A DNA stretch of 6,459 bases from a virus (taxonomy: Duplodnaviria > Heunggongvirae > Uroviricota > Caudoviricetes): IMG/VR virus record IMGVR_UViG_2651869750_000008; one strand, 5' to 3'. Positions 1 to 6,459 of the stretch are shown piece after piece. Each line of letters begins with the position of its first letter. Positions within the stretch are counted from its first letter, which is position 1. The position numbers and the translations under genes are program-made. The notes below the pieces were generated by a model that ran no database searches, was not told where the DNA came from, and saw only the letters and a program-made list of their open reading frames with translations.

Positions 1-486
1 GAAGAAGGTCAGAAAGGGCTTATAGGCTGGTTTGAAAGCGGGGATGTGCGGGCCTATAAAATCCGTTTTCCGAATGGCACGGTGGATGTGTTTCGTGGCT
101 GGATCAGCAGTATCGGTAAGGCAGTGACGGCGAAAGAAGTGATCACCCGAACAGTGAAAGTGACCAACGTGGGCAAACCTTCCGTGGCGGAAGAACGCAG
201 CGAAATTACGCCGGCCACTGCAATTAAGGTGACACCGACATCCGGTACCGTGGAAAAAGGAAAAACAACCACCCTGACTGTTTCTTTTGAGCCGGAAAGT
301 GCAACCGACAAGACGTTCAGAGCGGTTTCCGCCGATCCGTCGAAAGCCACCATTAGTGTGAAAGATATGACAATTACGGTAAACGGCGTGGCGACAGGTA
401 AGGTGCAGATCCCTGTGGTGAGCGGAAATGGTCAGTTCGCCGCAGTGGCTGAAGTCACCGTTACTGAAGCGGGCGCTGCAGGGTAA
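1..486 (+). CDS. V: Major tail protein V, C-terminal part (5'-truncated by window edge); includes Ig-like (Big_2-type) C-terminal domain
   Basis: Frame 1 is open from nt 1 with no stop until TAA 484-486; the GTG at 46 in the ORF track is internal. Translation ([34 protein letters not shown]...) matches recalled lambda gpV C-terminus. The T/S/V-rich segment [10 protein letters not shown]...VTVTEAG fits an Ig-like fold. Followed 13 nt later by the G start, as in lambda. Confidence 0.9.
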
Positions 487-499
487 ACGGAGGTAATAC

Positions 500-931
500 A
501 TGTTTCTGAAAACAGAACAATTTGAATATAACGGTGTGTCCGTCACGCTTTCCGAGCTGTCTGCGCTGCAGCGTATTGAGCATCTTGCCCTCCTGAAACG
601 GCGTGCAGAACAGGCAGAATCCAGCGGCAACCTGCAGGTAAGCGTGGAAGATCTCGTCAGAACCGGCGCGTTTCTGGTGGCGATGTCCCTGTGGCATAAC
701 CATCCGCAGAAAACGGCATCACCGTCAATGAATGAGGCTGTGATGCAGATCGAACAGGAGGTGCTCACCACCTGGCCTGCGGATGCCATTGCCCGGGCGG
801 AAGATGTGGTGTTGCGTCTGTCCGGGATGAGCGGGGCTGTTCATGCGGATACTGACAGCACCGAAGTGGCGAAAAATAACGCACTGACTGATGATGATTT
901 TTCTGCGGGAAAGTCTTCGACGGCGAGCTGA
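500..931 (+). CDS. G: Tail assembly chaperone G
   Basis: ATG 500 preceded by GGAGG (489-493, 6-nt spacer). 143 aa; MFLKTEQFEYNGVSVTLSELSALQRIEHLALLKRRAEQAES... closely matches recalled lambda gpG. Position between V and H. Stop TGA 929-931, 16 nt after the slippery heptamer. Confidence 0.92.
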   Translation: MFLKTEQFEYNGVSVTLSELSALQRIEHLALLKRRAEQAESSGNLQVSVEDLVRTGAFLVAMSLWHNHPQKTASPSMNEAVMQIEQEVLTTWPADAIARAEDVVLRLSGMSGAVHADTDSTEVAKNNALTDDDFSAGKSSTAS

Positions 932-1371
932 ATTTTGCCCTCAGACTGGCGCGTGAGATGGGGAGGCCTGACTGGCGCGCCATGCTTGCCGGGATGACAT
1001 CCACCGAATATGCCGACTGGCGACATTTTTACCGTACGCATTATTTTCACGATACCCAACTGGATATGCATTTTTCCGGGCTGACGTACGCCGTACTCAG
1101 CCTGTTTTTTTGCGATCCGGATATGCATCCCTCTGATTTCAGTCTGCTTGCCCCCCGGCATGAGGAAGAGCAGACGGAGAGGCCGGATGAGGAAAAAATG
1201 CTGATGCAGAAAGCGGCAGGACTTGCCGGAGGCGTACGGTTCGGTGGGGACGGAGGGCGCGAGATTTTATCGTCTGCGGATGTGGCGGATGTCAGCGAGG
1301 ATGATGCCGCATTAATGATGGCTTCAGCGGGGATTCCCGGAGGTGTGAGATATGTCCCAGCCGGTTGGTGA
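500..1371 (+). CDS. T: Tail assembly chaperone G-T fusion (G residues 1-~138 joined to T by -1 frameshift at 907-913)
   Basis: The T reading frame (frame 1, open through 1371; ORF track 958-1371) has no ribosome-binding site of its own and its first ATG at 958 is internal. The sequence after the shift (GRPDWRAMLAGMTSTEYADWRHFYRTHYFHD...GGVRY) matches recalled lambda gpT. The 3' end overlaps the H start by 20 nt. Confidence 0.85.
907..913 (+). other. Programmed -1 ribosomal frameshift slippery heptamer G GGA AAG (G to G-T)
   Basis: GGGAAAG sits in G zero frame as GCG GGA AAG (X XXY YYZ), six codons before the G stop. The -1 frame continues open as VFDGELNFALRLAREMGRPDW... to TGA 1369-1371. 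Same heptamer and placement as the lambda G/GT shift site. Confidence 0.85.
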
Positions 1372-3931
1372 TCTTGTTATTGACCTGAGTCTGGATGCGG
1401 TCCGTTTCGATGAGCAGATGAGCCGGGTAAGGCGTCATTTTTCAGGACTGGAGACCGACGCCAGAAAAACCGCCAGTGCCGTTGAACAGAACCTGAGCCG
1501 CCAGGCGCTGGCTGCACAAAAAGCCGGGATTTCCGTCGGGCAGTATAAAGCGGCCATGCGAACCCTGCCCGCACAGTTTACGGATATCGCCACGCAGCTT
1601 GCCGGTGGTCAGAATCCCTGGCTGATCCTGCTGCAACAGGGCGGTCAGGTGAAGGACTCCTTCGGCGGGATGATCCCCATGTTCAGGGGACTTGCCGGTG
1701 CGATCACCCTGCCGATGGTGGGGGCCACCTCGCTGGCGGTGGCGACCGGTGCGCTGGCGTATGCCTGGTATCAGGGCAACTCAACCCTGTCCGATTTCAA
1801 CAAAACGCTGGTCCTTTCCGGCAATCAGGCGGGACTGACGGCAGATCGTATTCTGGCCCTGTCCAGAGCCGGGCAGGCGGCAGGGCTGACGTTTAACCAG
1901 ACCAGCGAGTCACTGACGGCGCTGGTGAATGCCGGTGTGCGTGGTGGTGAGCAGTTTGATGCCATCAACCAGAGTGTCGCGCGTTTTGCGTCTGCATCCG
2001 GTGTGGAGGTGGACAAGGTTGCAGAGGCTTTCGGAAAACTGACCACCGACCCGACGTCGGGACTGATGGCGATGGCGCGCCAGTTCCGTAACGTGACGGC
2101 AGAGCAGATTGCGTATGTTGCACAGCTGCAGCGTTCCGGAGACGAGGCCGGGGCATTGCAGGCGGCGAACGATATCGCCACGAAAGGCTTTGATGAGCAG
2201 ACCCGTCGCCTGAAAGAAAACATGGGAACACTGGAGACCTGGGCGGATAAAACAGGGAAGGCATTCAAATCGATGTGGGATGCCATTCTGGATATCGGTC
2301 GTCCTGAGTCCTCAGCGGATATGCTCGCCAGTGCACAGAAGGCATTTGATGAGGCGGATAAAAAATGGCAGTGGTACCAGAGCCGGAGCCAGCGCCGGGG
2401 AAAGACCTCCTCTTTCCGTGCCAACCTGCAGGGCGCATGGGATGACCGGGAAAATGCCCGTCTGGGGCTGGCAGCGGCCACGCTGCAGTCGGATATGGAA
2501 AAAGCCGGTGAACTGGCTACCAGGGACCGGGCCGAACGGGACGCATCACAGCTGAAGTATACCGGAGAGGCGCAGAAGGCGTATGAGCGTCTGCTGACGC
2601 CGCTGGAGAAATATACTAACCGGCAGGAAGAGCTGAATAAGGCCCTGAAAGACGGGAAAATCCTGCAGGCGGATTACAACACGCTGATGGCGGCGGCGAA
2701 AAAGGATTATGAATCGACGCTGAAAAAGCCGAAGTCGTCAGGTGTTAAAGTGTCAGCCGGTGAGCGTCAGGAAGACCTGACGCATGCGGCGCTGCTGGCG
2801 CTTGAAACCGAGCTCCGGACGCTGGAGAAGCACAGCGGAGCGAATGAGAAAATCAGCCAGCAGCGCCGGGATTTGTGGAAGGCGGAGAGTCAGTTCGCGG
2901 TACTGGAGGAGGCGGCGCAACGTCGCCAGCTGTCTGCACAGGAGAAATCCCTGCTGGCCCATGAGCAAGAGACGCTGGAGTACAAACGCCAGCTGGCTGA
3001 CCTGGGTGACAAGGTTGAATACCAGAAACGGCTGAATGAGCTGGCAAATCAGGCTGTGCGGTTTGAACAGCAGCAGAGTGCGAAGCAGGCTGCAATCAGC
3101 GCAAAAGCCCGGGGGCTGACGGACCGTCAGGCACAGCGGGAGTCGGAATCGCAGCGCCTTCGTGACGTGTACGGTGATAATCCGGATGCGCTGGCGAAGG
3201 CCACATCTGCACTGAAGAACACCTGGTCTGCGGAGGAGCAGCTTCGTGGAAGCTGGATGGCCGGTCTGAAGTCCGGCTGGGGCGAGTGGGCAGAAAGTGC
3301 GACGGACAGTTTTTCGCAGGTTAAAAGCGTGGCCACGCAGACCTTTGACGGTATTGCACAGAATATGGCAGCGATGCTGACCGGCAGCGAACAGAGCTGG
3401 CGTGGTTTCACCCGTTCTGTGCTCTCCATGCTGACAGAGATTTTTCTGAAGCAGGCCATGGTGGGGATTGTCGGGAGTATTGGCAGCGCCATGGGTGGTG
3501 CTTTCGGTGGTGGGGCGTCTGCCTCCACGGGGACGGCCATTCAGGCTGCGGCGGCGAACTTCCATTTCGCGACCGGAGGATTTACGGGAACCGGTGGCAA
3601 ATACGAACCTGCCGGTATTGTCCACCGCGGGGAGTTTGTCTTCACGAAGGAGGCAACCAGCCGGATTGGCGTCGGCAACCTGTATCGTCTGATGCGCGGG
3701 TATGCGGAAGGTGGTTATGTGGGCGGTGCCGGAAGTCCGGCGCAGATGCGGCGGGCGGAAGGCATTAGTTTTAATCAGAACAATCACGTGGTGATTCAGA
3801 ACGACGGCACCAACGGACAGGCGGGGCCGCAGCTGATGAAGGCGGTGTATGACATGGCCCGCAAGGGGGCGCAGGATGAGATTCAGGCGCAGATGCGTGA
3901 TGGCGGCGTCTTTTCCGGAGGCAGGCGATGA
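1352..3931 (+). CDS. H: Tail tape measure protein H
   Basis: 859-aa ORF; ATG 1352 preceded by GGAGG (1339-1343). N-terminus MSQPVGDLVIDLSLDAVRFDEQMSRVRRHF and C-terminus ...GEFVFTKEATSRIGVGNLYRLMRGYA...MRDGGVFSGG match recalled lambda gpH (853 aa). Long charged, alpha-helical central region plus Gly/Ala-rich hydrophobic segment near the C-terminus, typical of tape measure proteins. Confidence 0.95.
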   Translation: MSQPVGDLVIDLSLDAVRFDEQMSRVRRHFSGLETDARKTASAVEQNLSRQALAAQKAGISVGQYKAAMRTLPAQFTDIATQLAGGQNPWLILLQQGGQVKDSFGGMIPMFRGLAGAITLPMVGATSLAVATGALAYAWYQGNSTLSDFNKTLVLSGNQAGLTADRILALSRAGQAAGLTFNQTSESLTALVNAGVRGGEQFDAINQSVARFASASGVEVDKVAEAFGKLTTDPTSGLMAMARQFRNVTAEQIAYVAQLQRSGDEAGALQAANDIATKGFDEQTRRLKENMGTLETWADKTGKAFKSMWDAILDIGRPESSADMLASAQKAFDEADKKWQWYQSRSQRRGKTSSFRANLQGAWDDRENARLGLAAATLQSDMEKAGELATRDRAERDASQLKYTGEAQKAYERLLTPLEKYTNRQEELNKALKDGKILQADYNTLMAAAKKDYESTLKKPKSSGVKVSAGERQEDLTHAALLALETELRTLEKHSGANEKISQQRRDLWKAESQFAVLEEAAQRRQLSAQEKSLLAHEQETLEYKRQLADLGDKVEYQKRLNELANQAVRFEQQQSAKQAAISAKARGLTDRQAQRESESQRLRDVYGDNPDALAKATSALKNTWSAEEQLRGSWMAGLKSGWGEWAESATDSFSQVKSVATQTFDGIAQNMAAMLTGSEQSWRGFTRSVLSMLTEIFLKQAMVGIVGSIGSAMGGAFGGGASASTGTAIQAAAANFHFATGGFTGTGGKYEPAGIVHRGEFVFTKEATSRIGVGNLYRLMRGYAEGGYVGGAGSPAQMRRAEGISFNQNNHVVIQNDGTNGQAGPQLMKAVYDMARKGAQDEIQAQMRDGGVFSGGRR

Positions 3932-4960: not shown

Positions 4961-5704
4961 ATGACACAGACAGAATCAGCGATTCTGGCGCATGCCCGGC
5001 GGTGTGTGCCTGCGGAGTCGTGCGGCTTCGTGGTGAGAACGCCGGAGGGGGAGCGGTATATCCCTTGTGTGAATATCTCTGCAGAGCCGGAGGCGTATTT
5101 TCGTATTGCACCGGAAGACTGGCTGCGGGCAGAGATGCAGGGGGAGATTGTGGCACTGGTCCACAGTCATCCCGGTGGTCTGCCCTGGCTGAGCGAGGCC
5201 GACCGGCGGCTGCAGATAAAAAGTGCACTGTCCTGGTGGCTGGTCTGCCGGGGGGAAATTCATAAATTCCGCTGTGTGCCACATCTGACAGGACGGCGCT
5301 TTGAGCACGGGGTGACGGACTGTTACACGCTGTTCCGGGATGCCTACCATCTGGCGGGAATTGATATGCCGGATTTTGAGCGTGAGGATGACTGGTGGCG
5401 CAACGGTCAGAACCTTTACCTGGACAATATGGAGGCGACTGGTTTTTACAGGATTTCCCTGCCTTCCGCACAGCCTGGCGATATCCTGCTGTGCTGCTTT
5501 GGCGCATCGGTGGCCAATCATGCCGCCATATACTGCGGCAACGGTGAGCTGCTTCACCATCTGCCTGAACAACTGAGTAAACGGGAGAGGTATTCCGAAA
5601 AATGGCAACGACGAACGCATTCAGCCTGGCGTCACCGCCACTGGCACGTATCTGCCTTCACGGGGATTTACAACGATTTGGCCGCCGCCTCAGCCTGTAT
5701 GTGA
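4961..5704 (+). CDS. K: Tail tip assembly protein K (N-terminal JAMM/MPN metalloprotease-like domain + C-terminal NlpC/P60-like domain)
   Basis: 247-aa ORF; MTQTESAILAHARRC...matches recalled lambda K. Exact JAMM motif H-x-H-x7-S-x2-D (HSHPGGLPWLSEAD) at nt 5162-5203. C-terminal half carries conserved Cys/His (GVTDCYTLF ... NHAAIYCG ... LLHH) consistent with NlpC/P60. The start at 4961 is needed to include the sequence upstream of the JAMM motif; no in-frame Met occurs before M59. Confidence 0.9.
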   Translation: MTQTESAILAHARRCVPAESCGFVVRTPEGERYIPCVNISAEPEAYFRIAPEDWLRAEMQGEIVALVHSHPGGLPWLSEADRRLQIKSALSWWLVCRGEIHKFRCVPHLTGRRFEHGVTDCYTLFRDAYHLAGIDMPDFEREDDWWRNGQNLYLDNMEATGFYRISLPSAQPGDILLCCFGASVANHAAIYCGNGELLHHLPEQLSKRERYSEKWQRRTHSAWRHRHWHVSAFTGIYNDLAAASACM

Positions 5705-6282
5705 ACACGGCAGCGGAAGCCATCCGTGCCCTGTCGATGCAGATGCCGGGATTCCGCCGTCAGATGAACGAAGGCTGGTACCAGATACGTATTCGCGGTG
5801 AGGACACGGCACCGGAGGCGGTGTACGCCCGTCTTCACGAACAGCTGGGTGAGGGAACGGTCATCCACATTGTGCCGCGACTGGCCGGGGCCGGAAAGGG
5901 TGGACTGCAGATTGTGCTGGGGGCGGCAGCCATCGTGGGCTCTTTCTTCACGGCCGGAGGCTCGATGGCGTTATGGGGTACAGCCCTGAGTGCCGGTGGT
6001 TTTTCTGCCACCACGATGCTGTTTTCACTGGGGGCCAGCATGATTCTGGGCGGTGTGGCCCAGATGCTGGCCCCGAAGGCAAAAACACCGGATTACCGCG
6101 CAACGGATAACGGCAGACAGAACACGTACTTTTCCTCGCTGGATAACATGATTGCCCAGGGGAACCCGATGCCGGTGCCTTACGGTGAAATGCTGGTTGG
6201 CTCCCGCCGTATATCCCAGGACATCAGTACCCGTGATGAAGGCGGTGACGGGAAGGTGGTGGTTATCGGGCGGCAGGCATAA
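5602..6282 (+). CDS. I: Tail tip assembly protein I (N-terminal ubiquitin-like domain ending in Gly-Gly + hydrophobic C-terminal region)
   Basis: 226 aa; ...ARICLHGDLQRFGRR...IHIVPR...QIVLGAAAI...LGGVAQMLAPKA...TDNGRQNTYFSSLDNMIAQGN...VVVIGR matches recalled lambda gpI (223 aa). ATG 5602 lies inside the 3' end of K in a different frame (103-nt overlap). Stop TAA 6280-6282. Confidence 0.93.
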   Translation: MATTNAFSLASPPLARICLHGDLQRFGRRLSLYVNTAAEAIRALSMQMPGFRRQMNEGWYQIRIRGEDTAPEAVYARLHEQLGEGTVIHIVPRLAGAGKGGLQIVLGAAAIVGSFFTAGGSMALWGTALSAGGFSATTMLFSLGASMILGGVAQMLAPKAKTPDYRATDNGRQNTYFSSLDNMIAQGNPMPVPYGEMLVGSRRISQDISTRDEGGDGKVVVIGRQA

Positions 6283-6325
6283 AAGCGAAAAAATCCCGCA
6301 GTGCTCACGGACAGGAACTGCGGGA
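6283..6325 (-). terminator. Candidate Rho-independent terminator oriented for minus-strand transcription
   Basis: Inverted repeat CCCGCAGT (6295-6302) / ACTGCGGG (6317-6324), extendable by a T6294-A6325 pair, with a 14-nt loop. The plus strand has an A-run (6288-6293) 5' of the stem, so the minus strand reads stem-loop then ATTTTTTCGCTT. The plus-strand 3' flank (AGAGTTACG) is not U-rich. The loop is rather large for a canonical terminator. Confidence 0.4.
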
Positions 6326-6459
6326 GAGTTACGAAGATTGAGTGTAAGGAATTATTCTTATGTGTAAGCGCATCATTTAAACCGTCTTTCGCCTCCCTTT
6401 CCTGTTTCCGATACTAATGTCCATTTTCGCAGTAAAAGGACATTTAAGATGAATGCACG

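Follow-up and report, generated by a model that had tools for sequence, protein, structure and literature searches.

The closest described counterparts of the locus analyzed here are the tail assembly chaperones of bacteriophage lambda, gpG and gpGT, which were studied by Levin, Hendrix and Casjens in 1993 and by Xu, Hendrix and Duda in 2004, 2013, and 2014 (cited in PMC5009743). In lambda, gpG and its frameshift product gpGT are made at a ratio of about 30:1, and the T sequences are produced only as part of frameshift-derived gpGT. Of the two regions, G attaches to the tape measure protein and T binds and recruits the major tail subunit; tail assembly requires both gpG and gpGT, and both are absent from the virion (PMC5009743). 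The motif G_GGA_AAG is, moreover, highly shift-prone in Escherichia coli (PMC5009743).

We analyzed a 6,459-nt stretch of DNA, hereafter referred to as the window, and asked how it compares with this system. With a probability of roughly 0.93, positions 500 to 1371 correspond to the G/GT tail assembly chaperone cassette of a lambda-like E. coli prophage, working by -1 slippage as in lambda. The sequence anatomy, the family membership, the synteny, and the conservation of both the slip motif and the trans-frame peptide were observed directly in the data on the window. Homology, synteny, and conservation point to the same mechanism as in lambda, from which slippage, its efficiency, and the chaperone roles would carry over by analogy. 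Such a recoding cassette is already known, being a textbook feature of a very common prophage family.

Tail module and G/T junction of the window

The plus strand of the window carries a lambda-type tail module in the order V'-G-T-H-M-L-K-I, with Pfam cut-offs passed throughout. All eight tail ORFs are full length and pass the cut-offs of their families, the V' ORF running off the 5' end of the window, and the further genes of the module identified by Pfam are M, L, K (JAB and NlpC/P60), and I. Flanking the cassette are the homologue of V, which ends at 486, and that of H (1352-3931), with G at 500-931 and T ending at 1371. H begins within T, the two genes sharing 20 nt, and the Shine-Dalgarno (SD) of H forms a duplex of -10.8 kcal/mol. 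At the DNA level, prophages of E. coli O111, O103, O121 and others share 98-99% identity with the window, compared with about 97% for Stx-converting phages and about 79% for lambda. A search of 5,426 complete E. coli genomes gave matches to the window in 4,471 of them. An Rfam search with the whole window returned no family at the gathering score. The features on which our analysis centers are as follows.

1-486, plus strand: major tail protein gene, 3' part (lambda V homologue with a C-terminal Ig-like domain; Pfam Phage_TTP_12 and Big_2)
489-493, plus strand: Shine-Dalgarno GGAGG for G, 6 nt before ATG500 (anti-SD duplex of -10.8 kcal/mol; direct reading)
500-931, plus strand: gene G, tail assembly chaperone, zero-frame product of 143 aa and 15.5 kDa (PF06894, Phage_TAC_2; TIGR01674 equivalog)
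898-931, plus strand: overlap of 11 codons between the last -1-frame stop and the G stop (TGA at 895-897 closes the -1 frame upstream)
907-913, plus strand: slippery heptamer G GGA AAG, predicted site of programmed -1 ribosomal frameshifting (phase, lambda alignment, homologues)
913-1371, plus strand: T segment in the -1 frame, 152 codons and a stop (PF06223, Phage_tail_T; TIGR01715)
921-991, plus strand: predicted RNA stem, not supported as functional (RNAfold)
1352-3931, plus strand: tape measure protein gene (lambda H homologue, 859 aa; PF06791, TMP_2; PF09718, Tape_meas_lam_C)

Gene G starts at ATG500, ends with TGA at 929-931, and clearly belongs to its family, scoring 170.7 bits against PF06894 (cut-off 27) and 167 bits against the TIGR01674 equivalog (cut-off 74.45). 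Close to its 3' end, the heptamer GGGAAAG at 907-913 is indeed in the X XXY YYZ phase that the original prediction had assigned to it, base 907 being the third base of a G-frame codon (GCG GGA AAG). The AAG codon at 911-913 is followed by TCT TCG ACG GCG AGC (encoding SSTAS) and then by TGA, which bears out the predicted position near the G stop. After the site, the -1 frame is open for the announced 152 codons, up to the stop at 1369-1371, and the junction reads SAGK/VFDGELNF as expected, with GUC UUC GAC GGC GAG CUG AAU UUU as the post-shift reading. Since the -1 frame is closed upstream by the TGA at 895-897, a -1 shift can join G to T only within 898-931. The predicted fusion GT (500-913 joined to 913-1371) would comprise 290 aa, with a mass of 32.0 kDa, and the T segment would be translated only as its C-terminal part. 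T scores 53.6 bits against PF06223 (cut-off 25.9) and 209.6 bits against TIGR01715 (cut-off 77.35), model position 1 of the latter corresponding to residue 5 after the junction. Neither G nor T of the window shows any damage. A PDB sequence search with the fusion protein gave no match at E <= 0.01, and thereby no solved structure of a relative.

The original prediction was overstated with respect to the detection by mass spectrometry of a peptide spanning the junction. Because trypsin cuts between the K and the V at this point, a tryptic digest would give no such peptide. VFDGELNFALR is a -1-frame tryptic peptide encoded upstream of any ATG, and NNALTDDDFSAGK is common to G and GT.

What is unusual about GGGAAAG is its placement, not its presence. 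The bare heptamer is not rare, with two copies in the window compared with 1.14 expected from shuffles. By contrast, when the codons of G were shuffled 20,000 times, the 11 codons at the end contained an in-phase X XXY YYZ motif in 1.4% of the trials and an X XXA AAG motif in 0.035%. The genes of the window contain eight in-phase slippery motifs, and a long -1 frame is found only at the G site, where 152 codons are opened compared with 1 to 70 at the other motifs.

Two of these other motifs were considered and set aside. The second in-phase (X XXY YYZ) copy of GGGAAAG, at 2398-2404 in the tape measure gene, leads into a -1 frame that is closed 13 codons later and is situated in a segment not alignable with lambda H; this copy is probably incidental. 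In gene I, the in-phase CGGAAAG / AAAGGGT at 5892-5901 opens a -1 frame of 70 codons, which was taken as the background of a GC-rich gene.

Two further observations concern individual genes of the module. T contains two copies of a G(L/I)xGGVR(F/Y) motif, at 1219-1242 and 1330-1353 of the window (T residues 103 and 140). Both copies are present in lambda-type T, and T proteins of the N15, phi80, and Fels-1 type end after the first; judging from the sequences, the C terminus of lambda-type T looks like a duplication-extension of roughly 37 aa. Gene K (4961-5704) encodes 247 aa, as it does in the PGAP annotation of relatives, and its Prok-JAB domain begins at residue 3. The lambda K of RefSeq is only 199 aa, its start lying 48 codons later, which would truncate the Prok-JAB domain. 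With no Shine-Dalgarno (+0.7 kcal/mol) and a position 6 nt downstream of the L stop, the K start, ATG4961, may depend on translational coupling.

Slip motif across homologues

Conservation was assessed on a comparison panel of 12 annotated phages, the G proteins of which are 77% to 30% identical to that of the window, and on a wider set in which the panel was complemented by 80 viral contigs and by 73 loci from one-genome-per-species contigs. The 80 viral-contig loci, all at least 92% identical, are of little use for conservation but useful for decayed copies. A strict X XXY YYZ scan missed the N15-type G GAA AAG and was replaced by a scan for N NNA AAG, which was adopted after direct reading of the 3' ends of G.

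In all 12 panel phages, an open -1 frame of 118-159 codons spans the end of G and reaches the tape measure gene, and an in-phase motif ending in A AAG is found at the homologous position. This motif is G GGA AAG in lambda and ev099, A AAA AAG in an Stx1 phage, and G GAA AAG in N15, mEp237, phi80, mEp043, mEp460, Ayreon, Kp4865-4, Fels-1, and Gifsy-2. Two of the records concur, since that of N15 annotates the GGAAAAG heptamer as a slippery sequence and that of Gifsy-2 refers to a frameshift hybrid, G+G'. In 79/79 distinct G homologues, down to about 30% identity, the last codons include an in-phase N NNA AAG, which takes the form GGGAAAG in 34, GGAAAAG in 44, and AAAAAAG in 1. The phase of the heptamer, the conservation of which had been put forward as a check of the original prediction, is thus kept throughout, with no homologue lacking a slippery site. 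Furthermore, wherever the sequence reaches the stop of the -1 frame, this frame extends at least 105 codons past the G stop, except in two decayed copies.

The two decayed T frames belong to close relatives of the window. In one of them (L062, about 2520-2584), there is a 1-nt indel after EYADW; in the other (L050, about 2491 onwards), homology to the window is lost partway through T. As for the motif of the family majority, G GAA AAG (44/79; loci L086-L094 and L114-L164), it does not conform to the canonical X XXY YYZ and is therefore missed by strict heptamer scanners. Many of the G GAA AAG loci have a single codon between AAG and the G stop.

A separate remark applies to some of the one-genome-per-species loci (L097-L109), which are short or low-coverage contigs filed under unrelated organisms, including Neobacillus, Oceanobacillus, Kitasatospora, Pseudomonas, Shewanella, Leeuwenhoekiella, and Pseudoxanthomonas. 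Their G has the same identity to our query as that of lambda (69%). The exact 124-nt junction segment of lambda is also present in 13 other loci, of which these contigs are likely members, and they look like lambda DNA contamination of assemblies.

The run of six A in the single AAAAAAG homologue is what could be cited for a fusion arising from transcriptional slippage of RNA polymerase rather than from ribosomal slippage. However, polymerase slippage operates on A runs far longer than three, and three consecutive A are all that the window offers. The conserved, codon-phased N NNA AAG points instead to tRNA re-pairing, and it is of ribosomal frameshifting that the literature on lambda GT speaks (PMC5009743). 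We consider slippage by the polymerase extremely improbable and retain ribosomal slippage as the source of the fusion.

Trans-frame peptide, start signals within T, and candidate stimulators

Right after the junction, the T frame encodes a peptide, ELxFxxxLARE(F/M)GRPDWR, that is conserved across the panel and lies upstream of the first ATG. In the zero frame, the tail of G is variable and consists of 1 or 5 residues (SSTAS, CSTVS, HSKAS, PSPVS, PLPAS, P, or S). Within the 18-nt overlap that follows the heptamer, the window and lambda show two differences, 915 C/G and 924 C/T, both of which are silent in the T frame but alter the encoded residue in the G frame. The first ATG of the T frame, ATG958, comes 15 codons after the junction, and the corresponding codon in most homologues is not Met but Phe (TTC/TTT). 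Because the equivalent of ATG958 is mostly Phe, the conserved N-terminal part of T is without a possible start codon of its own. The statement of the original prediction that T has no start signals of its own is essentially right, ATG958 having no usable Shine-Dalgarno. A small qualification is that T does contain ATG codons and that one of them, ATG982, is preceded by GGAGG.

These start codons bear on whether T could be an ordinary separate gene, translated from ATG958 or ATG982, with the heptamer being incidental. In PGAP annotation, the equivalent of ATG958 does serve as the start of a stand-alone "phage tail assembly protein T", and the GGAGG upstream of ATG982 forms a duplex of -9.3 kcal/mol. 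However, ATG958 is essentially without SD (-2.3 kcal/mol and 2-nt spacing, compared with -10.8 for G and H), its position is occupied by Phe in most homologues, and the T equivalog model and the ELxFxxxLARE peptide both start 11 codons farther upstream, right after the slip site. The GGAGG of ATG982, which stems from Gly-Arg codons, is 13 nt away from it and is not conserved in lambda, where these codons read GGGCGA. A heptamer of no consequence is also hard to reconcile with a motif in phase in 79/79 homologues, and lambda makes its T sequences exclusively as gpGT (PMC5009743). We therefore regard a separate T gene as very unlikely and favor translation of T by frameshifting from G, alongside which a minor N-terminally truncated T product might conceivably be made from ATG982.

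The original prediction also anticipated that automatic annotation would miss the fusion, and this is what we found. In two near-identical prophages, PGAP calls a stand-alone T from ATG958, the equivalent of 958-1371, separate from G, and in RefSeq lambda, too, G and T are two distinct CDSs that are not joined. According to the PRFect paper (PMC10885494), chaperone pairs left unjoined are a common gap in annotation. Because T is listed as a separate gene, the predicted proteomes of thousands of E. coli genomes are without the 290-aa GT, and the annotated 137-aa "T" is probably never made. For the G/GT family, a simple rule would be to take the last in-phase N NNA AAG within G as the point at which the two frames are joined; this rule held in 79/79 distinct homologues. 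The practical value of our analysis lies in annotation, and biologically nothing new is implied.

To our knowledge, the accepted view is that the lambda-type shift has no stimulatory signal and needs none. RNAfold nevertheless predicts a stem in the window, in which an outer helix, starting 7 nt after the heptamer, pairs 921-928 with 984-991 and encloses an inner hairpin at 947-982. Measured against dinucleotide shuffles, the stem has a z of -2.5 in the window and down to -5.5 in Gifsy-2. Further tests were done on 52 distinct junction segments in a gap-free alignment, in which pair counting showed 77.7% of cells to be paired, with a covariation score of 0.172 compared with 0.094 in shuffles. 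Covariation measures robust to relatedness were not significant for these segments (136/500 and 365/500), and RNAalifold found no consensus structure in them. When the T protein was kept fixed and its codons were resampled, the z of the window was -1.3, with 12% of the recodings at least as stable. The mean z for all 52 sequences was -1.0, and values at or above 0 were obtained in Kluyvera, Phytobacter/Kosakonia, and most Proteus loci. Since the stem does not beat this recoding null, most of its apparent stability comes from the GC-rich codons of the conserved peptide. A tree-aware count identified seven same-branch compensatory events, all in the outer stem, compared with 0-3 for slid partners, but also 59 pair-breaking events. 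One outer-stem pair alternates between G-C, A-U, and C-G, its 3' partner being a synonymous site.

We largely set aside a downstream stimulatory structure on the basis of the recoding z of -1.3, the lack of an RNAalifold consensus, and the 59 pair breaks. It is conceivable, though unlikely, that the outer stem (921-928/984-991) acts as a modest tuner of the G:GT ratio in the lambda/N15/phi80 subgroup, which includes the window; this would run contrary to the accepted view of a shift without stimulator. Upstream of the heptamer, the 887-906 stretch reads GACTGATGATGATTTTTCTGC and by direct reading contains no GGAG, GAGG, or AGGA that could form an SD-like element. This stretch is not conserved with lambda.

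State of the prophage and comparison with known systems

The 3' end of the window, 6364-6459, corresponds to the left end (tnpA-proximal) of IS679, which belongs to the IS66 family. This part begins at 6364 with GTAAGCG, includes the tnpA ATG at 6449, and matches the IS679 end of NZ_CP077479 at 100% identity. A distance of 81 nt separates the insertion from the gene I stop, at a place where relatives have sodC and then J. In NZ_CP077479, which harbors a near-identical prophage, IS679 is present at the same junction in the opposite orientation, and behind it there are only tail-fibre fragments. In NZ_CP066032, the IS is inserted about 94 bp farther upstream. The window ends 96 nt into IS679, and J, if present, and the remaining prophage would lie beyond it.

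On the minus strand just after gene I, at 6285-6311, we noted a hairpin with a run of T that resembles a terminator. In NZ_CP066032, the hairpin sequence continues into a minus-strand sodC gene, and the hairpin in the window probably represents the terminator of sodC, which the IS has separated from its gene.

The prophage may be defective, with a cassette that is intact but idle. The cassette would then be a relic, intact in sequence but with a frameshift that has no current function in phage production, as could be expected from an IS679 end at 6364, just after gene I, in the place of sodC and J, from the tail-fibre fragments that alone follow IS679 at the same junction in NZ_CP077479, and from the decayed T frames of L062 and L050. 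Decay does happen among relatives. However, the cassette of the window is intact, unlike these two copies, G and T are undamaged, and all eight tail ORFs are full length and pass their family cut-offs. Moreover, the window covers only the first 96 nt of the IS, so that J, if present, and the rest of the prophage would lie past its end, and a relic would concern the present use of the element, not what it is. We find a relic rather unlikely, and the identity of the locus as a G/GT cassette is the same in either case.

In a cassette working as in lambda, ribosomes would start at ATG500, and most of them would read to the stop at 929-931, producing gpG (143 aa). A small fraction would slip back by one base, with the Gly and Lys tRNAs on GGA and AAG re-pairing with GGG and AAA, and would continue with GUC UUC GAC in the -1 frame up to 1371, producing gpGT (290 aa, 32 kDa). 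By analogy, the G part of both proteins would coat the tape measure protein (encoded at 1352-3931), while the T part of GT would recruit the major tail protein (the gene of which ends at 486). The tail tube would then polymerise to the right length, and neither chaperone would stay in the virion.

This predicted shift can be compared with several known systems. One of them is E. coli dnaX, which also undergoes -1 tandem slippage ending on the Lys codon AAG, a codon decoded by a single E. coli tRNA-Lys. In dnaX, however, A AAA AAG is assisted by strong stimulators, an upstream SD-like element and a downstream hairpin, and shifting reaches roughly 50%, whereas the window has no upstream SD-like motif and its downstream stem is unsupported.

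In the cassettes of N15 (gp14/gp15), phi80, Fels-1, and Gifsy-2, G and T are homologous proteins (30-50% identity for G) encoded in the same synteny; the -1 frame likewise stays open across the slip site, and the peptide that follows the junction is conserved, as in the window. These cassettes differ from it in using G GAA AAG, on which re-pairing of the P-site tRNA is imperfect, where the window has G GGA AAG. In addition, many cassettes of this type have the G stop one codon after AAG, and their T ends without the second C-terminal G(L/I)xGGVR(F/Y) repeat, which T of the window shares with that of lambda.

The closest match is lambda itself, which has the same gene order (V-G-T-H) and the same Pfam/NCBIfam families as the window. 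Its gpGT is 71% identical to the conceptual fusion of the window, with an alignment that is unbroken across the junction. The proteins differ slightly in length (140 aa in lambda compared with 143 aa in the window for G, and 279 aa compared with 290 aa for GT), the acidic linker before the site is TDDDFSAGK in the window and PAEPVSAGK in lambda, and T of the window has a 4-aa insertion in an acidic stretch and a slightly longer C terminus. None of these differences touches the recoding site, where the aligned lambda heptamer is an identical G GGA AAG in the same phase, followed as in the window by five sense codons and a stop.
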